Shown here piece by piece: positions 1 through 41,290 of a stretch of DNA of 41,666 bases (the first letter of the stretch is position 1; each line of letters begins with the position of its first letter). The position numbers and the translations under genes are program-made. Origin of the DNA: a virus. Its lineage: Duplodnaviria; Heunggongvirae; Uroviricota; Caudoviricetes. The DNA lies in the IMG/VR virus record IMGVR_UViG_2526164631_000048, positions 1 through 41,666 of that record, one strand, 5' to 3'. The notes under the pieces were generated by a model. The model was not told the DNA's origin. It did not search any database and saw only the letters and a list, made by a program, of their open reading frames with translations.

Positions 1-540
1 ATGAATCCGTTTAACGCCATTACTTTTGCTGCATTGTGCGGGCCTCTGGTTTGTCCTGCTGCTATGGCGCAGGAGTTCATCATCCAGCCAGCCCCTGTGA
101 TTGCTAAACCTTTTGAGTACTCTCCCTCTGTTGAGGAATTCTCACGCAAAATGGAAGAGGGTAAGGAGATCTTGCAAAAGTTAACAATTGCAGCAGATGA
201 CTACTATATCTGTTTGATTGATCTTAATAGCCAAGATGCTCGCGAGTTTGTTTCCAAAAACGGGACAGATACGACAGAGGCATGCGAAATGTTCCTGCGT
301 GCTTTTGAAGAAGAAGTGAAGCGTACAATTGAATCGCCTCTGCCTGAATTTATCAGGTCAGAACTGAAGGTTTACTGGCGTCATATTGCTAAAGCTCGCT
401 CATCTGTCACTCGCCTTAACAATTACATAAAGAGCATATTTAAAGAAACTGTTACTTTTAGCGGGCGCGCGGATCTTGCTGGAATTGCAGCACTAGCTAG
501 TCACACATCAAATAAGCTAAAATCGATGCAATTTCACTAA
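1..540 (+). CDS. Hypothetical protein with N-terminal hydrophobic segment; upstream partner of YafO-like toxin (possibly N-terminally truncated by window edge)
   Basis: ORF open from base 1; 16 bp gap to downstream toxin gene; AT-rich; no family recognised. Confidence 0.4.
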   Translation: MNPFNAITFAALCGPLVCPAAMAQEFIIQPAPVIAKPFEYSPSVEEFSRKMEEGKEILQKLTIAADDYYICLIDLNSQDAREFVSKNGTDTTEACEMFLRAFEEEVKRTIESPLPEFIRSELKVYWRHIAKARSSVTRLNNYIKSIFKETVTFSGRADLAGIAALASHTSNKLKSMQFH

Positions 541-556
541 CCGATAGCGGACGACC

Positions 557-991
557 ATGCATCTAGAAGTCTCTATTAATCCAGAAACTAGAGCTGAATT
601 TTTTGATGAAGTTTTTCTCAAATTCCCAGAGCTAGAGTCTTCTATCATTGATGATTTCAAGAGATACAAAGCAACCGGTGAGCTTCCGCATTATTTCGGT
701 AGGGACGTTGCGTATACTCAGCCTTATGGTGCTTTTCGGGCTGGGTTGATGCATATCCATCTTTGTCTACCGCCAAACAAGTTTCCCGAGAAACTTCCAC
801 AACCGGATAGGGTCTGCAAGAAAGGTGATCCTGATAATGATGCTTGTCTTGTGTATGTCCAAGGTGAGCTTTATGAGAATAAATATTCACTCATTGCTAT
901 TATGTATCCCGATGCACATGAAAAAGCAAGAAAACATGATGTGATGAGCTATCTGGCGCGAATTGCCCAGAATTATAAAGATGAAAACTAA
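557..991 (+). CDS. YafO-family toxin-like protein (ribosome-dependent mRNA interferase family)
   Basis: 144 aa; motifs FGRD..Y, HIHL, LVY.QG, LIAI..P..H.KAR align with my recollection of E. coli YafO; followed by terminator. Confidence 0.5.
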   Translation: MHLEVSINPETRAEFFDEVFLKFPELESSIIDDFKRYKATGELPHYFGRDVAYTQPYGAFRAGLMHIHLCLPPNKFPEKLPQPDRVCKKGDPDNDACLVYVQGELYENKYSLIAIMYPDAHEKARKHDVMSYLARIAQNYKDEN

Positions 992-1012
992 CCCGCCGAA
1001 GCGGGTTTTTTG
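992..1012 (+). terminator. Rho-independent terminator (cccgc-cgaa-gcggg + T6), probably bidirectional
   Basis: GC hairpin 992..1005 followed by TTTTTT; lies between convergent genes. Confidence 0.6.
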
Positions 1013-1017
1013 TGAGA

Positions 1018-1290
1018 TTAGTTATTTATTTTCCTATTTGTTCTTACCCTCTCCCATTCAATTCTGCCTTCTTCACGCCGTTTATCTATATATTCAGCAA
1101 GATCCTGAATGTTGATGCAGCGCTTTGCTTTCTGTGATGTACCAACACGATAAGTCGGGATCGGCAACTGGCATGCATTTGCTTTCGCTTCTGCTGTGTT
1201 AGGGCTCATACCGAAATACTTTTGGCATACAGCTGACAGCTCAATGTTTGGGGTATTGAATTCAGCCATCAGTAAAAACAAGGTGTTCAT
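1018..1290 (-). CDS. PrtN-family (pyocin activator-like) regulatory protein
   Basis: N-terminus MNTLFLLMAEF resembles PrtN MNTLFLLMAQY; GGAG RBS before ATG at 1290; ORF track start 1317 is GTG. Confidence 0.5.
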   Translation of the reverse strand: MNTLFLLMAEFNTPNIELSAVCQKYFGMSPNTAEAKANACQLPIPTYRVGTSQKAKRCINIQDLAEYIDKRREEGRIEWERVRTNRKINN

Positions 1291-1326
1291 AATTTTCTCC
1301 ATCAAAACCGGCTGCACCCGGGAAAA

Positions 1327-1902
1327 TCATAATTCTGTGCTGGTGGCAGGAATTAATTTCTGCCAGATAGCGGAAACATATTTTGCCTGATGACGGGCAT
1401 CAGCCAGGGCGTTGTGCCGGTCGCCATCGAAAGGCATGTCCATTTTGGGGTCGAATCCGATGGAACGCCCAAGCGTAACGATCGTGCGTACATCGTGGTC
1501 ATTCCAGTACGCCCACGGGCAGATTTGTCCTGCTCGCTCGTAAGCTCCACGTAAAATTACGTTGTCGAAGGTGGCCCCGTTACCCCAGACTTTTAAATAT
1601 TTCGTATTGTCTGCGTGCCGGTTAATGAAATGATTTAGTTCTGAGAGAGCATCGCTGATCGACAAAGTATCATCAATACAGATTGCAGCTCGTGCTTCAG
1701 GGCTTTGTTTCAACCACCACAGGATGGTATCGCCGTCAGGTGTAGCTCCTTGCCCCATAGCACTTTCCAGGCTAACAACCGTATAGAATTCTTGTCCGAT
1801 GTCTCCGGTTTCTGGAGTGAAGAACACCGCGCCAATGGAAACGATCGGTGCATCCTTATTTTTCCCCATCGTCTCAAGGTCGATCATTAAGTTGTTCATC
1901 AC
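1327..1902 (-). CDS. DnaQ-like 3'-5' exonuclease (DEDD family)
   Basis: 191 aa; MIDLETMG Exo I motif near N-terminus; H..ALADA near C-terminus. Confidence 0.7.
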   Translation of the reverse strand: MMNNLMIDLETMGKNKDAPIVSIGAVFFTPETGDIGQEFYTVVSLESAMGQGATPDGDTILWWLKQSPEARAAICIDDTLSISDALSELNHFINRHADNTKYLKVWGNGATFDNVILRGAYERAGQICPWAYWNDHDVRTIVTLGRSIGFDPKMDMPFDGDRHNALADARHQAKYVSAIWQKLIPATSTEL

Positions 1903-2450
1903 TTCACCTCCTGCGGCGGTTCCGGTAGCGGCATCCAGTGAGTTGCTTGCTCAATACCATTACCCGGCTTAATCGTTGCATCTCCGCGCCGAAAGGTGCT
2001 TCCGGTATAGCGTGCGGAGCATATTAGCGGTTCAACCAGAGAGCTATCGAAATTCACCGAAATAAGCACGTTCTGGCCCTTTTCAGGCATTCGATCACTA
2101 CAGATTATCCAACTATCCGGAGTTCCCGGAGAGTTGCCATTTACATCGAAGTTTGGCTCTGCGTCCTGAACCAGGAGGATGTAACCATTCTTGGCTGTAT
2201 CAAGTTCTAACGCCTCGGTGACGGTGCCGAAATAGCGATTACCTAAATCAGCATCACAAGTGCTTACATCAATGGAAACTTCCATGCCTTCGATTAATTC
2301 TGGCAAGTTGTAAGTTTGGCTTATAGGCTCTGCTTCCAGCGATGCCAGTGCAATTTCATAAGCACGGCGCTCAATATTGTCTCGAACGTCCAGGCCGCCT
2401 ATGCGCTCTTTGATTTCTTTAATCAGTTCTTTGTCGGTAAAAGTGGTCAT
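1899..2450 (-). CDS. DUF551-domain phage protein
   Basis: 183 aa; C-terminal W.PLPEPP-type motif; overlaps neighbours by 4 nt. Confidence 0.55.
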   Translation of the reverse strand: MTTFTDKELIKEIKERIGGLDVRDNIERRAYEIALASLEAEPISQTYNLPELIEGMEVSIDVSTCDADLGNRYFGTVTEALELDTAKNGYILLVQDAEPNFDVNGNSPGTPDSWIICSDRMPEKGQNVLISVNFDSSLVEPLICSARYTGSTFRRGDATIKPGNGIEQATHWMPLPEPPQEVK

Positions 2451-2812
2451 GCTGTAGCCCCTTCTTGATATTTTTCAAACCAGAACACAACCGGGTCAGA
2501 TTTCATTTCAACCAATCCCATACGAACCAGCGCCTTGCCTTTCCCGGACGCAAGGAATTCACGACGACCATCACTGATAATTCGCCGATAATCTTCCAGG
2601 CTACTGCAATGCTTGTGCAGATTGCATGGGTGGCATGCCGGAACCATGTTGGATATATCGTCACGTTCCTGGTGAAGCATATTTCCAGCAAAACGAATGA
2701 CCGGTTTTACATGGTCTGCATGCCACTTTTCGCCAAGTTCGCAGCCGCAATAAGCGCAGCGACCACCGAACTTCATGCGCAGTTCTGCACGTTGTTTTTT
2801 CGTCAGTGCCAT
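2447..2812 (-). CDS. HNH endonuclease
   Basis: CAYCG..H.DH..P and CHPCN motifs; AAGGAAAG RBS before ATG at 2812 (ORF track extends to 2902). Confidence 0.7.
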   Translation of the reverse strand: MALTKKQRAELRMKFGGRCAYCGCELGEKWHADHVKPVIRFAGNMLHQERDDISNMVPACHPCNLHKHCSSLEDYRRIISDGRREFLASGKGKALVRMGLVEMKSDPVVFWFEKYQEGATA

Positions 2813-2813
2813 A

Positions 2814-3032
2814 TCAGCTTTCCTTATATGGATTAATTTTATTGTGCAGTGTGTTGAACGACGCCCATACCACGTCGTTATACAATTCAATAACTGGCTC
2901 AATTATTTTCCCGATTGCCCATACCAGAATTAACGGGGATATCGGTATCATCAACACGATAAACAGAATGAGAAACAAAAATTCTGTCGCTCTACTTCTT
3001 CGCGGATATTCTTTTCTGAATAATGTCGGCAT
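2814..3032 (-). CDS. Small hydrophobic (membrane) protein, 72 aa
   Basis: ATG at 3032 preceded by AAGGAGAG RBS; central hydrophobic stretch FLFLILFIVLMIPISPLILVWAIG. Confidence 0.4.
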   Translation of the reverse strand: MPTLFRKEYPRRSRATEFLFLILFIVLMIPISPLILVWAIGKIIEPVIELYNDVVWASFNTLHNKINPYKES

Positions 3033-8460: not shown

Positions 8461-8471
8461 ATAAATATTGA

Positions 8472-9146
8472 TTAGGCCTTTATTTTGTATCTTCTTGGTT
8501 TTCCTGAGAAAATTACTGTACCAATTATAGAGCAATTACCGTTGATCTTAATGTAAGGTTCAGGCCAGTTTGGGTTTAATGCTTTGAGGTAACGCTGTGT
8601 TCCATCTTCTATCAACCGCTTAAAGGTGGTTTCGCCTGTATCGTGCATCAATGCAATAACGTCGTCACCGTGGCAGGCAGGGACTTCAGGATCTACAAAA
8701 ATCATGTCTCCCGGGCGGTACTCATCAATCATTGAATCACCAATCACCCGCAAGATATAAGTCATTTCGCCACAGGGTACAGGGCAGGGATAAGTTTCTG
8801 CTGTGCTCAAATCAACCTCAGAATAGCCAACTTCTTTCCATGCTCCGGCCTGTACCCATGATATGACAGGGACTAACGTTATTTGTTTGTTAGTAATTGA
8901 AACATCAGGTTTTTTTGTGATGTTTGTTGTCTGGTGTTCTTGATCAAGCCATCCGACAGGCAGGTCGAAACATTTTTCGATGTGCCGTGCCATGCTGTCA
9001 CCGATATTTTTAGTAGCACCATCTCCCATAAACCTGCTGGTCTGGGTTGGCTCGCGATCAATCATGGTGGCAAAGGAAGAATTCCCGCCAACACCATCTC
9101 TCAGTTTTCTGGCGTTAGACCGCCGGATGTCATGGACTGTTTTCAT
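8472..9146 (-). CDS. CI-like prophage repressor (HTH + LexA/S24 peptidase domain)
   Basis: 224 aa; C-terminal GDSM and K..D motifs of S24 self-cleaving repressors; divergent from cro-like gene. Confidence 0.8.
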   Translation of the reverse strand: MKTVHDIRRSNARKLRDGVGGNSSFATMIDREPTQTSRFMGDGATKNIGDSMARHIEKCFDLPVGWLDQEHQTTNITKKPDVSITNKQITLVPVISWVQAGAWKEVGYSEVDLSTAETYPCPVPCGEMTYILRVIGDSMIDEYRPGDMIFVDPEVPACHGDDVIALMHDTGETTFKRLIEDGTQRYLKALNPNWPEPYIKINGNCSIIGTVIFSGKPRRYKIKA

Positions 9147-10032: not shown

Positions 10033-10177
10033 ACAGTTTAACGGCAAATAACCGTTTGTCGCAACAGCTGGTGGTCAGCGTCGCTGAACACCTGTTGTTA
10101 CGGCATGAATGCAGATTACCAAATCACCTGGCTGTAAGTAACCACAGAGAACTTTACCTGACTGTGGGGGGCGAGTT

Positions 10178-11094: not shown

Positions 11095-11909
11095 GTATGG
11101 AGCTGATGGTTAAAGCGATGAAAATTCGAGTGGGTAATCCATTGCGAAAACTGGTTCTGATCAAGCTGGCTGATAATGCCAGCGATCAGGGTGAGTGCTG
11201 GCCCAGCTATCAGCATATCGCTGATCAGTGCGAGATTAGCAAACGTTCTGTGATGAATCATATTGCGGCCCTCTGTGAGTCCGGGCTGGTAAAAAAAGTC
11301 ACCCGGAAAGGTGAAAAAGGTAACTCAAGTAATATCTATCTCCTTCATCTGGATGGTGCAGGAGATTCACTAGGGGGTAGTGCAAATAATTCACTATCTG
11401 GTGCAGCAAATTCACCAGGTAGTGCAGGAGTTGCACCAGGGGGTAGTGCAGGAGATTCACCCAGAACCAGTCACTCTTTTGAACCAGTCAAAGAACCAGT
11501 CAATGAACCAATAGCTGTTGGTGCATCAGTTGATGAGTCCGTGCGAGTTCGTTCAAACCGACCGGAATACTCTCCGGAGTTTGAGCAGGCATGGCTGGCA
11601 TATCCCAAACGTGCTGGTGGCAATTCAAAATCTGCAGCCTTCAAAGCCTGGAAAGCCCGTTTGAACGAGGGGGTAAACCCCGAAACCATGCTGGAAGGTG
11701 TGAAACGCTACGCGGGCTGGGTATCTGCGATGGGTAACAGCGGCACACAATTTGTGAAACAGGCTGTCACGTTCTTTGGTCCGGATCGTCATTTCGAAGA
11801 ATCCTGGGAAGTTCCTGCGATATCTGCAGCCAGACGCGAGGACCCGTACTTCAAAGCCAGTTACGACAACGTGGACTACAGCCAGATCCCGGCAGGATTC
11901 AGGGGGTGA
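11091..11909 (+). CDS. Replication initiator (O-like; N-terminal winged-helix DNA-binding domain)
   Basis: N-terminal LVLIKLADNASDQGECWPSYQHIADQCEISKRSVMNHIAALCESGLV; internal Gly/Ser/Ala linker encoded by iteron-like repeats. Confidence 0.65.
   Translation: MSMELMVKAMKIRVGNPLRKLVLIKLADNASDQGECWPSYQHIADQCEISKRSVMNHIAALCESGLVKKVTRKGEKGNSSNIYLLHLDGAGDSLGGSANNSLSGAANSPGSAGVAPGGSAGDSPRTSHSFEPVKEPVNEPIAVGASVDESVRVRSNRPEYSPEFEQAWLAYPKRAGGNSKSAAFKAWKARLNEGVNPETMLEGVKRYAGWVSAMGNSGTQFVKQAVTFFGPDRHFEESWEVPAISAARREDPYFKASYDNVDYSQIPAGFRG
11355..11515 (+). repeat. Iteron-like tandem repeats inside the initiator gene (candidate ori)
   Basis: Five imperfect ~20-bp repeats (ggtagtgcaggagattcac-like), then 3 perfect GAACCAGTCA 10-mers plus one degenerate copy. 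Confidence 0.55.
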
Positions 11910-12400
11910 TCATGAGTCTTTTGAATGAAGTTCAGAAATTCATTGAAGCCCATCCGGGGTGTACTTCCGGAGACATTGCGGATGCTTTTGCAGGTTACTC
12001 ACGGCAGCGCGTTCTGCAGTCAGCAAGCAAGTTACGTCAGAGTGGGCGTGTGGCTCACCGTTGTGAAGGAGATACACGCAGACATTTCCCACGCCTGACT
12101 GAGAGAGCGCAGGAGCCGGAACTACAACCAGTTCGTGAAACCAGACCTGTGCGCAATTTCTATGTCGGCACTAACGATCCCCGGGTGATTTTGTGCCTGA
12201 CCCGCCAGGCGGAAGAACTGGAGTCCAGGGGCCTATACCGTCGTGCTGCAACGGTGTGGATGGCGGCATTCCGTGAAAGCCACTCCCAGCCAGAACGAAA
12301 CAATTTTCTGGCGCGTCGTGAGCAGTGTTTACGGAAAAGCAGCAAGCGCGCTGTATCGGGTGATGAGTGGTATCTGTCAGGGAATTACGTGGGGGCTTAA
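11906..12400 (+). CDS. PerC-family transcriptional regulator-like protein
   Basis: C-terminal LESRGLYRRAATVWMAAF...RREQCL resembles PerC domain. Confidence 0.5.
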   Translation: MIMSLLNEVQKFIEAHPGCTSGDIADAFAGYSRQRVLQSASKLRQSGRVAHRCEGDTRRHFPRLTERAQEPELQPVRETRPVRNFYVGTNDPRVILCLTRQAEELESRGLYRRAATVWMAAFRESHSQPERNNFLARREQCLRKSSKRAVSGDEWYLSGNYVGA

Positions 12401-13458: not shown

Positions 13459-14268
13459 ATGAATAATCTGATGGTCATTGATGGTATTGAAGTTCGTCGT
13501 GATGCTTATGGGCGTTACAGCCTGAACGATCTGCATCGCGCAGCAGTAGCATCTGGTGCAAATGCCAGAACCAAGGAGCCGGGAAAGTTTCTTTCCAGCC
13601 AACAAACTGTTGAGCTTGTTCATGAATTGACCAACACCCAGAATTTGGGTGTTGACCCGGTGAGTGTGATTCATGGGGGAAATGAACGGGGAACGTATGT
13701 CTGCAAGGAACTGGTGTATGCCTATGCAATGTGGATCAGCCCGTCATTCCATCTGAAGGTGATCCGTACTTTCGATATGGTAACCAGCGCACCGGAAAAA
13801 TTATCCGGACAGGCTGCTGACAAGATGCAGGCTGGTGTGATCCTGCTGGACTTTATGCGCCGGGAGTTAAACCTGTCTAACTCTTCAGTGCTTGGTGCCT
13901 GTCAGAAACTCCAGGAGGCTGTTGGCTTACCGAATCTGGCACCGCGCTATGCCATTGATGCTCCTGCTGATGCACACGATGGCTCAAGTCGCCCGACACT
14001 GTCACTGAGTGCACTGCTGAAACAGTATGGTATACGCCTGACGGCTAATCAGGCATATCACCAGATGGTGAAGCTGGGGATCGTCGAGCAGCGCGAACGA
14101 TACAGCCGTACCGCGATTAACAACATCAAAAAATTCTGGTCGCTGACAGCGAAAGGCTGCATGTTCGGCAAGAACATCACCAGTCCTGCAAATCCGCGCG
14201 AGACGCAGCCGCATTTCTTCGAATCCCGATTCCCTGAGCTGTTAAAGCTGCTCGATACCGTTCATTGA
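13459..14268 (+). CDS. KilA-N domain protein
   Basis: N-terminal IDGIEVRRDAYGRYSLNDLHRAAVASG; AGGAG RBS. Confidence 0.65.
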   Translation: MNNLMVIDGIEVRRDAYGRYSLNDLHRAAVASGANARTKEPGKFLSSQQTVELVHELTNTQNLGVDPVSVIHGGNERGTYVCKELVYAYAMWISPSFHLKVIRTFDMVTSAPEKLSGQAADKMQAGVILLDFMRRELNLSNSSVLGACQKLQEAVGLPNLAPRYAIDAPADAHDGSSRPTLSLSALLKQYGIRLTANQAYHQMVKLGIVEQRERYSRTAINNIKKFWSLTAKGCMFGKNITSPANPRETQPHFFESRFPELLKLLDTVH

Positions 14269-18446: not shown

Positions 18447-18977
18447 ATGAAGTACCCAACAGTTATTGTCAATGGTGTGTCCGTTCGTGTTGATGAGGAT
18501 GGACGCTACAACTTAAACGATCTCCATGCAGCAGCAGTTGCAAATGGAGAGGCTACAGAGCAACAGCGCCCAAGCCAGTTTTTGCGTAGCGCGCAGATAA
18601 AACGCTTCATAAAAGCACTGGAGGCCAAAGTGCAAAAAAGCACTTTGGAACAAATTCAGCCACTTAAAATAATCAAAGGTGGTGCAGAACCAGGTGTGTG
18701 GGGTGTTGAACTTCTGGCAATCAGATATGCAGCATGGATTAAGCCGGAATTTGAAATCGAAGTTTATGAAGTTTTCAAAACGGTTGTCCGTCTCGGCGTT
18801 GGCGCAATGTCCCGTCTGAATAGAATCGATCACATCATCAATACTGAAACCAAAGCGATAAGCCAGTGCGCAAGCCAAATGGCTAAGTGGGGCGTTGGTG
18901 GGCGAAAAAGATTGCTTCATGTTGCACGTGAGAGAGCGGCAAATGAAGTGCAAATGTATTTGCCCGGAATGGTGTGA
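18447..18977 (+). CDS. KilA-N domain protein (second copy)
   Basis: N-terminal VNGVSVRVDEDGRYNLNDLHAAAVANG parallels 13459..14268. Confidence 0.6.
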   Translation: MKYPTVIVNGVSVRVDEDGRYNLNDLHAAAVANGEATEQQRPSQFLRSAQIKRFIKALEAKVQKSTLEQIQPLKIIKGGAEPGVWGVELLAIRYAAWIKPEFEIEVYEVFKTVVRLGVGAMSRLNRIDHIINTETKAISQCASQMAKWGVGGRKRLLHVARERAANEVQMYLPGMV

Positions 18978-37545: not shown

Positions 37546-38139
37546 TTGGGGGTTCAGGCATTTGGATCATCTGGGACTTATATCAAATCACCTGGTGTAA
37601 CGAAAATTATAGTGGAAGCCGTTGGCGGAGGTGGTGCCAGTGGTAATTTGTCGGCAACTGCATCTGGTAACTGTGGTGTAAGTGCTGCCGGTTCCAACGG
37701 GGCATATGCTAAAGCATTTTTTTATCAGTCTATACCTGAATCCGTGCAAGTAACTATTGGAAGCGGTGGTGTAGCAGGAACAGGACCAGGAGGCTCTGGA
37801 GGTGACGGCGGGAATACAAGCTTTGGTGATTTGCTTGTATGTCCGGGAGGAAGGGGATCAACTCAAGTTCAGCAGGTACCTCCATTTTCAGGGGGAAGTG
37901 CAACAGAAGCACCAATTCCTACAGGGCAAGGGATTCTGTTCCATTCAGTTTCACGATCAAATTTATGTGGGGCACTTGGACTTGGTGATGATCAGGCGAT
38001 TGGCGTTGAAAGTATAACCACTACTATGCTTGGGATATACGGTATTGGCGGGACAGGTAAATACAATAAGGCGTCATCAGGTCCAGCGACAGGAAATAAT
38101 GGAAATCAGGGATATATTCTTGTGTGGGAGTATCAGTAA
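37546..38139 (+). CDS. Gly-rich tail fiber distal/receptor-binding part (frame open from 37489; TTG start at 37546 after AGGAAGG)
   Basis: 197 aa Gly/Ser-rich; lower GC; in a different frame that overlaps the end of 37040..37510. Confidence 0.5.
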   Translation: MGVQAFGSSGTYIKSPGVTKIIVEAVGGGGASGNLSATASGNCGVSAAGSNGAYAKAFFYQSIPESVQVTIGSGGVAGTGPGGSGGDGGNTSFGDLLVCPGGRGSTQVQQVPPFSGGSATEAPIPTGQGILFHSVSRSNLCGALGLGDDQAIGVESITTTMLGIYGIGGTGKYNKASSGPATGNNGNQGYILVWEYQ

Positions 38140-38140
38140 T

Positions 38141-38345
38141 GAGCGATATTTATGCAGTCGTACAAAATGGTGTCGTTACAAATCTTGTTGTATGGGATGG
38201 TAAGTCAGAGTTTAAGTCAGAAAAAGCGGATATAGTTAAATGTGTTGGAGATGTTGGTATTGGCTGGTCATATGACGGTAAAAAATTCATCAAGCCTTCC
38301 TTAAAACCAGATGTAGTTACTCCTCAAGATGAGTTAGTCAGTTAA
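38141..38345 (+). CDS. Small protein after tail fiber (possible fiber assembly chaperone, 68 aa)
   Basis: ATG directly after fiber stop; position typical of Tfa but much shorter. Confidence 0.35.
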
Positions 38346-38756
38346 TTGCTAGTACGCTGGAGATTTTGATAATTTCCAGCGCATTTTTCCTTCTGCAGTA
38401 ATGGATGAAATACCGCGAGTATAATGTTTTTATGCATATGAACCGTTTAAACCAGAGGAATCCTGACGAAATTGGTTATTGCGCCGAGAGTTGTCGGAGG
38501 GGGTGATATAGGTTATCTAATGGAGTAATCATTTTAACATTAATCAGTTTCCCCATGACATCCTCTAAACCCTATATAAACGATTTCCTGCTACTGGCAT
38601 TCAAACGAAATAATTTGAAAGCAATTTAAAGAGTTATTTGTCTAATGTTGGAAGCCGCAGCCACGTCGTATGCAAGAACGTGCTGCGGCTGGCTGGCGAA
38701 CTTTCGATAGTGCGAGTATTGAATGATTTCCAGCCGTTACCGATTTTACGTGTTAA

Positions 38757-39005
38757 TTAGTGAACAAACCACTCGTCAGCAGATTCCCAGGTATCTTTCA
38801 GAGTCTCCTGAACAAAAGTTTTTGCAGAATCCTTATCTGCGGTGCGTGTAACAGAAAGGCCATCGTTGCTGGTGGCTTTTACGATCACCTCTACATCGTC
38901 ATAACGTTTACTGATGCGTCGGGTTAATTCTTCCTTTAACGCATCCACAGCACCGGTTGGCATTTTAGTCATTTTTTCTTTGGCTATGCAGATTTCAATA
39001 CGCAT
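38757..39005 (-). CDS. dinI: DinI-family protein
   Basis: 82 aa; MRIEICIAK...TWESADEWF matches DinI; GAGGGA RBS; two LexA boxes upstream. Confidence 0.8.
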
Positions 39006-39018
39006 AAAAGTCCCTCTA

Positions 39019-39066
39019 TACTGTGTTTGTATACAGTATTATTTTTAACTGTATGGATAAACAGTG
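39019..39066 (-). promoter_or_regulatory. Two tandem LexA (SOS) boxes upstream of the dinI-like gene
   Basis: taCTGTgtttgtatACAGta (39019..39038) and aaCTGTatggataaACAGtg (39047..39066), both CTGT-N8-ACAG. Confidence 0.7.
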
Positions 39067-40164
39067 TCAAGAGGTCTTATTTCTGCTCCTTTGGAGCTCT
39101 TCAAAACGATTATGTAAAGATTTCGGATACAGTTCGGTATATACCTGCCATAGCACGTTTAATGAACGATGCCCTGTAACCTGGGCGACTTCCTCAATAC
39201 TAAAACCAGCCTCAAATAAGCGACTTGCCCCTTCTCTACGCAAATCATGGTATCGCAGATCTTTAATACCTAATTTGCTTCTTACCCTCTGGAATCCCGC
39301 AGTAACAGAAGTGCTGTTATATGGAAAAATGAATTCTGATTTTTTGGGTTGTCGTTGGACGATATCCCAGGCTTCCCCAAGCAAGGCTACTTTCATATGG
39401 TTGCCTTCCTTTTTACGTGGATCTTTCCTGTCTCTTACGAGTATGGATTTTTGTTCCTGATCGAGATCCTCCCATCGTAATCGGCATACTTCACCGATTC
39501 GCATACATGACCACACAGAAAATTTGAGGATATCAACGAACGGAATTTTTGAGCATTTATGTGTAGATCGTTGTTGAAGACCTTCAATGAGCATGTCCAG
39601 TTCATCAGATGCCGGTCTACGATTACGACGATTTGATTTACCAATTAACCCAAGTTTAAGTAGATATGGACGAGCGGCTTTTGCTGGGTTTGATGTGTAA
39701 TTAATTCCATATACAGGTTTGGCAGCATCCAGAACACTGCCAAGATAACTAACATCGTGGCTAACTGTAGCTGGACCTGCACCAGCGTTGTTTCTTAGCC
39801 TGCAATGTTCAATTACGTCATTTTCTGTCAGTTCAGATAGTTTGATCGCGGAGATGTCACTATCCATAAGCAGTTCCAGCACATATCTTTTAGTACGGCC
39901 TGCTTTACCTCCGGCATTTGGGTCATTTAAATATTTGTGTAGTAAGTCACGGACTGTAAGTCCGTCAACTGCATTTGATGATGGAATGCCATATAGATCT
40001 AATTCCATCACTTTCTGTGTGCCCCATGTTTTGGCATGAGCATGTTTAGGGAATGTTTTGCTTTCCCTGTAAGTGATAACACCTTTTTCTTTGATAATCA
40101 CATTACAGCGATAGCGTGGTGTGCCATCGGATTTTAGTCGTTTCTCTATGTTATAGTACGCCAT
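39067..40164 (-). CDS. int: Tyrosine recombinase integrase (dusA-specific integrase type)
   Basis: 365 aa; R...H..LR..Y catalytic signature (HDLRREGAS, LWQVY); divergent from and adjacent to dusA. Confidence 0.85.
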   Translation of the reverse strand: MAYYNIEKRLKSDGTPRYRCNVIIKEKGVITYRESKTFPKHAHAKTWGTQKVMELDLYGIPSSNAVDGLTVRDLLHKYLNDPNAGGKAGRTKRYVLELLMDSDISAIKLSELTENDVIEHCRLRNNAGAGPATVSHDVSYLGSVLDAAKPVYGINYTSNPAKAARPYLLKLGLIGKSNRRNRRPASDELDMLIEGLQQRSTHKCSKIPFVDILKFSVWSCMRIGEVCRLRWEDLDQEQKSILVRDRKDPRKKEGNHMKVALLGEAWDIVQRQPKKSEFIFPYNSTSVTAGFQRVRSKLGIKDLRYHDLRREGASRLFEAGFSIEEVAQVTGHRSLNVLWQVYTELYPKSLHNRFEELQRSRNKTS

Positions 40165-40183
40165 TACACGACCTCGTTATTTC

Positions 40184-40220
40184 GGGTTCCCATAAAACGT
40201 GGGAACCTGTGCGGGAACCT
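40184..40220. repeat. GGGAACC motif cluster: inverted repeat GGGTTCCCA-N7-TGGGAACC plus a direct repeat 12 bp on
   Basis: Seen directly between int start and dusA start. Confidence 0.5.
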
Positions 40221-40252
40221 AACGCGAGAAAAATAGCCTGAAATGTTCAAAA

Positions 40253-41290
40253 ATGCACGATAATCATGAAACACAAAAAATTAATCAAACCAGCGTGATG
40301 CCTGAAAAAACTGGTGTTTACTGGAATTCTCGGTTTAGCATTGCTCCTATGCTCGACTGGACGGACAGACATTGCCGCTATTTCTTGCGTCTGCTTTCCC
40401 GCAATACGTTGCTGTATACCGAAATGGTGACCACAGGGGCGATTATTCACGGTAAAGGTGATTATCTGGCGTACAGTGAAGAAGAACATCCGGTAGCGTT
40501 GCAACTGGGCGGTAGCGATCCGGCGGCGCTGGCGCAGTGTGCAAAGCTGGCAGAAGCGCGCGGATATGATGAGATCAACCTGAATGTCGGCTGCCCGTCT
40601 GACCGGGTGCAGAACGGCATGTTTGGTGCGTGTCTGATGGGTAATGCGCAGCTGGTTGCCGACTGTGTGAAAGCGATGCGCGATGTGGTGTCGATTCCAG
40701 TGACGGTGAAAACGCGTATTGGCATCGATGACCAGGACAGCTATGAATTTCTCTGCGATTTCATCAACACTGTTTCCGGCAAAGGCGAGTGTGAGATGTT
40801 TATCATCCACGCACGTAAAGCCTGGCTTTCGGGGTTAAGCCCGAAAGAAAACCGTGAAATCCCGCCGCTCGATTATCCGCGTGTGTATCAACTGAAGCGT
40901 GACTTTCCGCATCTGACAATGTCGATTAACGGTGGTATCAAGTCGCTGGAAGAGGCCAAAGCACACCTGCAACATATGGATGGCGTGATGGTCGGGCGCG
41001 AGGCGTATCAGAATCCGGGTATTCTGGCGGCAGTAGACCGGGAGATCTTTGGTTCCTCGGATACCGATGCCGATCCGGTGGCGGTAGTGCGCGCCATGTA
41101 TCCGTACATTGAGCGTGAACTCAGCCAGGGGACGTATCTCGGCCATATTACCCGGCATATGTTGGGCTTGTTCCAGGGTATTCCTGGCGCGCGGCAGTGG
41201 CGGCGTTATTTAAGTGAAAATGCCCATAAAGCGGGTGCAGACATTAATGTGCTGGAACACGCGCTCAAACTGGTGGCGGATAAGCGTTAA
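40253..41290 (+). CDS. dusA: tRNA-dihydrouridine synthase A (DusA); start may be ATG 40298 (MPEKTG...)
   Basis: Flavin-dependent Dus motifs ([23 protein letters not shown]); 5' end lies at the prophage junction. Confidence 0.85.

Follow-up and report, generated by a model that had tools for sequence, protein, structure and literature searches.

DinI binds RecA filaments and modulates the co-protease activity of RecA, as cited in PMC3121763 and in a preprint, and the contact with RecA is made by its acidic C-terminal helix (Voloshin 2001, as cited in PMC3121763). The chromosomal dinI gene of E. coli is listed with one LexA box, ACCTGTATAAATAACCAGTA (PMC3009722 Table 4), and that of Salmonella has one strong box and one very weak box (HI of 4.0 and 17.6; PMC8072944). 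The dinI homologues of the prophages Gifsy-1, -2 and -3 are controlled by LexA and are induced by mitomycin C or nalidixic acid (PMC3121763; PMC8072944 Table 1). Replacement of the Gifsy box region abolishes induction by mitomycin C, while induction by nalidixic acid is 4.6- to 23-fold (PMC3121763, PMC8072944), and non-polar deletion of the homologues has no measurable effect on prophage induction (PMC3121763). The published HI values of the Gifsy boxes are 3.9-5.3 (Mérida-Floriano et al. 2021, PMC8072944), and the Gifsy-2 box, which lies 39 nt before the ATG, has an HI of 1.9 in the matrix rebuilt here. Further boxed relatives have been reported in other phages. In the Serratia phage OS31, a boxed dinI is convergent with the tail genes, and the dinI-like gene of phiKO2 is reported to be LexA-regulated (PMC7556043). 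Tum has a DinI-like C-terminal half and is under LexA control (PMC3121763). In an E. coli strain with a reduced SOS response, the prophage dinI-like gene c0943, possibly a copy of the cassette described below, moved with sulA, umuD and recN (PMC2817434). A LexA-controlled dinI homologue in a temperate phage is a well-known kind of gene, and it is routinely annotated. The presence of at least two LexA boxes on one promoter, as in lexA, recN and the colicin genes, leads to tighter repression and later induction. In Salmonella, the lexA boxes are 21 bp apart and the recN boxes are 18-22 bp apart (PMC8072944).

Here, we analysed a 41,666-nt stretch of DNA (the window), which is a segment of the E. 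coli chromosome containing a prophage, and compared its dinI-like gene with these systems. As in OS31 and phiKO2, the dinI-like gene is found behind the tail genes and points the opposite way, with a near-consensus LexA box upstream of it. In contrast, phiKO2, OS31, 186 (Tum), PSP3 and Fels-2 have a single box each, and the window dinI has neither the translationally coupled second gene of OS31 nor the antirepressor fusion of Tum. The window gene resembles the Gifsy genes in being a DinI-family gene of a prophage whose ATG is closely preceded by a strong LexA box that overlaps the promoter. The Gifsy genes are damage-induced, have one box, encode a 78-aa protein (42% identity) ending in DDWFY and lie in the nin region, where dinI heads an operon with an antirepressor gene and irsA that drives induction of a non-cleavable repressor, whereas the window has two boxes, no gene downstream of dinI, a position between int and the tail genes, and an S24 repressor of the cleavable type as judged from its motifs. 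With the chromosomal dinI genes of E. coli and Salmonella, the window gene shares the protein family, the full-length alignment with 1GHH and a LexA box at the promoter, but its product is only moderately identical to E. coli DinI, falls under the NCBIfam equivalog cut-off, and both of its boxes are strong. With the multi-operator SOS promoters it shares the presence of at least two boxes, although their spacing of 28 bp (27-29 bp in related loci) corresponds to no whole number of helical turns.

Two LexA boxes in the gap between int and dinI

The first-pass annotation had placed two CTGT-N8-ACAG sequences 28 bp apart between the integrase stop and the dinI-like start. An exact search located them at 39021-39036 (CTGTGTTTGTATACAG) and 39049-39064 (CTGTATGGATAAACAG), with starts 28 bp apart and a 12-bp gap between the 16-mers, and both are inside the 61-bp gap from the integrase stop (39067) to the dinI-like ATG (39005) on the minus strand. 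The proximal box (box 1, TACTGTATACAAACACAGTA, minus strand) spans 39019-39038, and the distal box (box 2, CACTGTTTATCCATACAGTT, minus strand) spans 39047-39066, so that its 20-mer abuts the integrase stop codon. That annotation had also proposed motif scoring of both boxes, and we scored them by the Berg-von Hippel/Lewis formula, using a matrix rebuilt from the 18 E. coli LexA boxes of PMC3009722 Table 4 and not the original Lewis 1994 matrix, which makes the absolute values slightly different from published ones. Box 1 (HI of 2.82) is the best site of the window and box 2 has an HI of 5.77, and both lie inside the range of the 18 genuine boxes (0.6-12.8, leave-one-out values), among which they rank fifth and eighth. 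The third-best site on either strand of the window has an HI of 12.07. As a control, 400 random windows were generated with a first-order Markov model; their lowest HI was 7.24, the mean of their minima was 11.85, and none reached 5.78 or below. Taken together, these results confirm that the dual-box observation is real and far beyond chance: both sites have CTGT-N8-ACAG cores with an AT-rich centre, HI values in the known range and an overlap with the predicted promoter. Since only boxes 1 and 2 fall below an HI of 12 in the window, no prophage gene other than dinI is a predicted direct target of LexA.

The core pattern matches three times in the whole window, against 0.45 matches expected. 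The third match (10132-10147), in the gap that separates the cII-like gene (ymfL) from the DUF4222/Ash ORFs, was rejected as a LexA box, as it is outside the 15 best HI sites (all 14.75 or better), and it is most likely due to chance.

It is conceivable that the two palindromes in the gap are themselves accidental, or that they are operators for the repressor of the prophage rather than for LexA. The region has a GC content of 40% compared to 50% for the window, which favours TA-rich palindromes, and the prophage does encode a repressor of the LexA family. However, the HI values of the boxes were unreached in the random windows, and no similar site is present in the repressor/cro region or elsewhere in the window. 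In addition, the promoter-dinI cassette is common to phages whose immunity regions differ, among them Stx phages, SKA5, mEp460 and the cdtI phage, and this leaves host LexA as the common factor. We therefore consider an accidental origin or control by the prophage repressor to be extremely unlikely.

The boxes are in register with a predicted promoter. On the gene strand, the gap reads 5′ to 3′ as ctcTTGACA, CTGTTTATCCATACAG, tTAAAAAT, aata, CTGTATACAAACACAG, tataGAGGGactttt, ATG. The promoter scan predicts a perfect -35 hexamer TTGACA at 39065-39070 (minus strand), which contains the integrase stop codon TGA (39069-39067), and a weak -10 hexamer AAAAAT at 39041-39046 (minus strand) after an 18-nt spacer; in an alternative register, the -10 hexamer would be TAAAAA at 39042-39047 with a 17-nt spacer. 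This arrangement matches at 10 of 12 positions and is the best match in 38000-40400, but it is not significant alone (3 hits compared to 6.2 expected in shuffles), and the weight of the predicted promoter comes from its register with the boxes and from its conservation, not from the scan score. Box 2 fills the spacer between the predicted -35 and -10 hexamers. Box 1 starts 5 nt after the -10 hexamer and would thus cover the transcription start, which is expected some 7 nt past the -10 hexamer, near 39032-39035. By direct reading, a Shine-Dalgarno sequence GAGGG is found at 39012-39016 (minus strand), 6 nt before the ATG. The predicted layout of the gap is that of a classic SOS promoter. The scans called neither an antisense promoter on the plus strand in the gap nor a terminator between int and dinI, and an Rfam search of the gap and the dinI 3′ region found nothing significant, with the best match being CssrB at 22 bits compared to a gathering score of 76.

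An RNA that reads through from int would contain CCUCU (39071-39075), which can pair with AGAGG of the dinI Shine-Dalgarno sequence (39012-39016). Masking of the ribosome-binding site in such an RNA was rejected as a general feature, as the CCUCU anti-Shine-Dalgarno sequence is not conserved in other upstream contexts.

The DinI-like gene, its 3′ flank and the prophage

The ORF downstream of the boxes had been called a dinI homologue from the sequence alone, and the database searches agree. The gene (38757-39005, minus strand) encodes 82 amino acids that match Pfam PF06183 (DinI) with an E-value of 1.1e-19 and 70.9 bits, compared to a cut-off of 24.2, over profile positions 1-63 of 63. It also matches PHROG 189 ('RecA filament binding protein DinI', 6e-31) and aligns over its full length with the E. 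coli DinI structures 1GHH and 7YWA (3.7e-13). The acidic C-terminal helix (TWESAD-WF) is kept and aligns with EILQETWESADDWFV of 1GHH. RefSeq annotates the product as a DinI-like family protein (WP_001217553.1). With NCBIfam NF007893, the equivalog model for chromosomal DinI, the protein has 73 bits compared to a cut-off of 111, which indicates a DinI-like paralogue and not the chromosomal orthologue.

About 65 nt past the dinI stop, the minimum free energy and centroid folds both give a strong hairpin with a 14-bp stem, one bulge and no U-tract (38653-38690, minus strand). The terminator scan did not call this hairpin, and it is possibly the 3′ end of the cassette transcript. The hairpin accompanies dinI in most contexts, and lambda-like phages and the E. 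coli core genome have it in the absence of dinI as well. The non-coding stretch 38640-38756 is found in 5243 of 5426 complete E. coli genomes, including K-12 MG1655, where it lies unannotated at 304224-304312, as well as in the lambda-like phages HK75, HK630 and HK633, which lack dinI. HK633 annotates the stretch as attP, similar to the ykgJ-yagV intergenic region. The stretch, probably an attP relic or else a shared non-coding module, would have turned into the 3′ flank of the cassette. For a DinR-like small RNA from the dinI 3′ UTR, by analogy with Klebsiella, we found only 6 nt of complementarity to ftsZ.

We also considered whether dinI and its neighbours form an induction module of the Gifsy type, in which a LexA-controlled dinI is coupled to a small antirepressor that inactivates the prophage repressor. 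PHROG 189 does include Tum-like fusions in which an antirepressor is joined to DinI. However, the minus strand between dinI and the convergent tail genes has no ORF of more than 31 aa. A search for a Gifsy-like antirepressor or irsA in this region returned only minus-strand ORFs of 26 and 31 aa with no family hits, and the 26-aa ORF lies beyond 38568, where the conserved cassette ends. Furthermore, the S24 repressor is predicted from its motifs to be of the cleavable type, which needs no antirepressor. A Gifsy-type module is thus highly improbable at this locus.

Over 38300-40300, the window has 100% identity with both NZ_CP066032.1 and an O111:H2 strain, and the annotation of NZ_CP066032.1 transfers to the entire window with the coordinates shifted by 3 nt near ymfK. 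Counted from the dinI region, the ymfK-like repressor (about 8469-9146) is offset by 3 nt relative to NZ_CP066032.1, which implies a small indel between the two sequences somewhere in 9.1-38.7 kb, and the window may derive from another strain. The prophage is lambdoid and is inserted at the 5′ end of dusA; its size of about 39 kb is approximate, as the left end was not located. Its early region resembles those of e14 and SfV (ymfK, ymfT, ymfL, an Ash-family gene, rusA and an antiterminator), and its structural modules encode an HK97-type head and a Mu-type contractile tail. The tail genes are on the plus strand and are convergent with the dinI-like ORF on the minus strand. The tyrosine integrase (365 aa; 39067-40164, minus strand; Pfam Phage_integrase, 1e-20) adjoins the 5′ end of dusA (40253-41290, plus strand). 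DusA-associated integrases are defined by a tyrosine integrase gene that adjoins the dusA 5′ end and by flanking 21-bp semiconserved att repeats (PMC4482086); the layout of int and dusA in the window fits this class, with the integrase beside the dusA 5′ end. No direct repeat of the dusA 5′ region (40150-40420) was found in positions 1-3000 of the window, and the left end of the prophage may lie beyond the window.

Several other genes of the window were noted. At its left edge, genes of the YafO toxin family (557-991) and the PrtN family (1018-1317) are found, and a PerC-family regulator is annotated at about 11903-12397. Two KilA-N domain proteins are encoded at 13459-14268 and 18447-18977, and a LexA-like site is near neither of them. 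A 197-aa glycine-rich protein (37546-38139; Pfam Gly_rich_2) and a 73-aa protein (38124-38345; PHROG 14370, function unknown) stand in place of the usual tail-fibre tip and assembly genes. The stfP gene beside them is truncated according to RefSeq, and related prophages have a DNA invertase and alternative fibre genes at the position of 37546-38345.

Conservation and contexts of the promoter and dinI

The conservation of the promoter was studied in 84 loci retrieved by protein similarity, of which 80 are from viral contigs and 4 from genomes (96-100% protein identity). A scan of genome contigs gave 4 near-identical loci, and single-protein queries of this kind reach only close relatives. Across the 84 protein-ascertained loci, at least four unrelated upstream sequences (a dusA-type integrase, a GCCCCAT-repeat region and two others) precede a conserved stretch from the -35 hexamer to the ATG, and the similarity starts exactly at the -35 hexamer. 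Conversely, when viral contigs were searched for the dual-box promoter pattern, each of the 86 matching stretches had dinI, complete or truncated, behind it. Of 5426 complete E. coli genomes, 1802 contain the cassette, with up to 7 copies per genome and 3467 copies in all, and a module identical to that of the window is found in ETEC H10407. The cassette or its dinI is also found in the named phages SKA5, mEp460, the cdtI phage, CP-1639, VT1-Sakai and BP-4795, and in many Stx1 and Stx2 phages. In the Stx phages, the cassette is beside an att duplication and does not follow an integrase. The conserved end of the cassette is at 38568, about 190 nt past the dinI stop.

Where no integrase is upstream (BP-4795 128-190, another locus at 464-520, and two more), tandem GCCCCAT(T/G)(G/C)AT repeats precede the cassette, and in the Stx phages these repeats are close to the att duplication. 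The repeats may be binding sites for a recombinase or an accessory protein.

These contexts bear on a further explanation, in which the boxes act mainly on the int transcript, either by blocking or ending read-through or by coupling int to the SOS response. Such a role would agree with box 2 abutting the int stop, with the lack of a called terminator between int and dinI, and with the RNA of the gap, which folds well (-21.7 kcal/mol, z of -3.15), with CCUCU paired to the dinI Shine-Dalgarno sequence in read-through RNA. In contrast, the unit of -35 hexamer, box, -10 hexamer, box and dinI also occurs without an upstream integrase, both in the Stx phages next to the att duplication and in other contexts, which argues that the boxes travel with dinI and not with int. 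In addition, the CCUCU sequence is lost in other contexts, and the fold score largely reflects the presence of two similar palindromes. A primary role in int transcription is accordingly very unlikely.

Phage morons are accessory genes that stand between core modules and are transcribed from their own promoter, and they have been described for HK97 and HK022. From the contexts above, the promoter and dinI together are a portable mobile cassette, a moron-type accessory gene with its own predicted promoter. As for other morons, the same gene and predicted promoter recur in different contexts with the boundary at the promoter. The difference lies at the 3′ end, where the hairpin has no U-tract and also occurs independently of dinI, and it is thus no more than a candidate for a dedicated terminator.

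Substitutions were counted in the protein-ascertained loci only, with 21 distinct indel-free variants over the 65 positions from the -35 hexamer to the ATG. Among 41 variant counts, none fell in the 16 CTGT/ACAG core positions, compared to about 10 expected; these counts are not independent and are indicative only. The -10 hexamer also had no substitutions among the 21 variants. The spacing of the boxes was 27, 28 or 29 bp across variants, which argues against a strict requirement for phasing or cooperativity.

For a more distant comparison, we sampled 11 phage dinI loci with 37-96% protein identity (Klebsiella, Salmonella, Aeromonas, E. coli and Yersinia). Of these 11 homologues, 10 have a LexA box upstream of the ATG at a distance of 33-39 nt. 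In Klebsiella P12620-1, two more Klebsiella phages, Gifsy-2, SEN34 and Aeromonas pAEv1818, it is a single strong box (HI of 0.7-3.1) at 34-39 nt. In the dinI of Yersinia YeP3, which follows another ORF, no box was found. Among the 11 sampled loci, a second box that fills the spacer was confined to the E. coli clade of 82-aa proteins (the window type and PhiR12_2). A subgroup of Stx-phage, BP-4795 and L005 loci has an eroded box 2 (HI of 9.4-9.6, with a core of CTGG...ACAG or ...ACAA) and intact box 1 cores, which suggests that box 2 may be dispensable. From these comparisons, box 1 appears to be a near-universal element and box 2 a clade-specific addition.

This distribution raises the question of whether box 1 is the sole working operator, with box 2 being a palindrome in decay or of accidental origin that acts merely as promoter spacer. 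Each boxed phage dinI sampled outside the clade has a single box at the position of box 1, the Gifsy dinI genes have one box each (PMC8072944), and in the copies of the Stx phages and BP-4795 box 2 has eroded, with CTGT...ACAG retained in box 1. However, box 2 of the window type has an HI of 4.7-5.8, which is near those of the sulA and lexA boxes and better than that of the recA box (7.44, leave-one-out), and no random window reached the score of box 2. Moreover, the cores of box 2 are invariant in the 21 variants while neighbouring positions vary. On balance, we find it improbable that box 1 works alone in the window-type promoter.

Proposed SOS wiring and its meaning

The first-pass annotation had read the locus as a prophage that wires a RecA modulator to the SOS response of the host, next to an S24-type repressor that is itself likely RecA-sensitive. 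The position of the repressor had to be corrected: the CI/LexA-like S24 repressor (8472-9146, minus strand; annotated as the LexA family protein ymfK) is about 30 kb away from the boxes in the window. Its identity as an S24 protein held (Peptidase_S24, 1.5e-26), and its sensitivity to RecA is plausible, since its sequence includes an Ala-Gly site (VQAGAW) as well as a GDSM serine and an FKRL lysine. The wiring claim was right in placing dinI behind LexA operators, but the cassette is portable and is not an invention of this prophage. The reading of LexA control is supported by the quality of the operators, their placement on a sigma-70 promoter, the conservation across contexts, and the proven precedents in other phages. 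Taken together, these results suggest that the 61-bp gap is, with high probability, an SOS-regulated promoter that drives the prophage dinI, and that it moves with the gene as a mobile moron cassette.

In an undamaged lysogen, dimers of host LexA would sit on both boxes and block RNA polymerase at the transcription start (box 1) and at the spacer between the -35 and -10 hexamers (box 2), and this occupancy would shut a promoter with an otherwise perfect -35 hexamer. Upon DNA damage, RecA filaments would form and lead to the self-cleavage of LexA, and both operators would be cleared. The 82-aa DinI homologue would then be made from a leader of about 30 nt with a good ribosome-binding site, and it would bind RecA filaments through its acidic C-terminal helix and modulate the co-protease activity, providing extra DinI that is damage-inducible. 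From the operators and the predicted promoter, we infer LexA occupancy, the position of the transcription start and induction by damage; in turn, the protein may influence the SOS response's shut-off, mutagenesis or cleavage of the S24 repressor. Since dinI is the only predicted direct LexA target, induction of the prophage itself should run via RecA-stimulated cleavage of the S24 repressor. A more specific and tentative proposal, which we consider rather unlikely, is that the spacer box makes dinI a tightly shut, late-firing SOS gene whose product feeds back on RecA filaments, sets when or at what threshold UmuD and the S24 repressor of the prophage are cleaved, and thereby tunes lysis versus recovery of a damaged lysogen. 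According to a comparative genomics preprint, a DinI-like prophage gene is linked to quinolone resistance being acquired later, which would fit an effect at the level of the host.

A full-text search for the exact box sequences returned only int-deletion primers, from a paper on a dusA-integrated Stx2 phage that mentions neither LexA nor dinI, and the dual-operator architecture of this common E. coli cassette appears to be undescribed in the searchable literature. What is new is confined to the second box in the spacer, a small architectural variation. The locus provides a clean and testable promoter architecture for a widespread gene (1802 of 5426 complete E. coli genomes), whose carriers include Stx-converting phages and ETEC and EPEC strains. 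The dual- and single-operator versions are a natural handle on whether the timing of phage DinI expression matters, and extra DinI could affect SOS mutagenesis, survival of quinolones or the induction of toxin phages.
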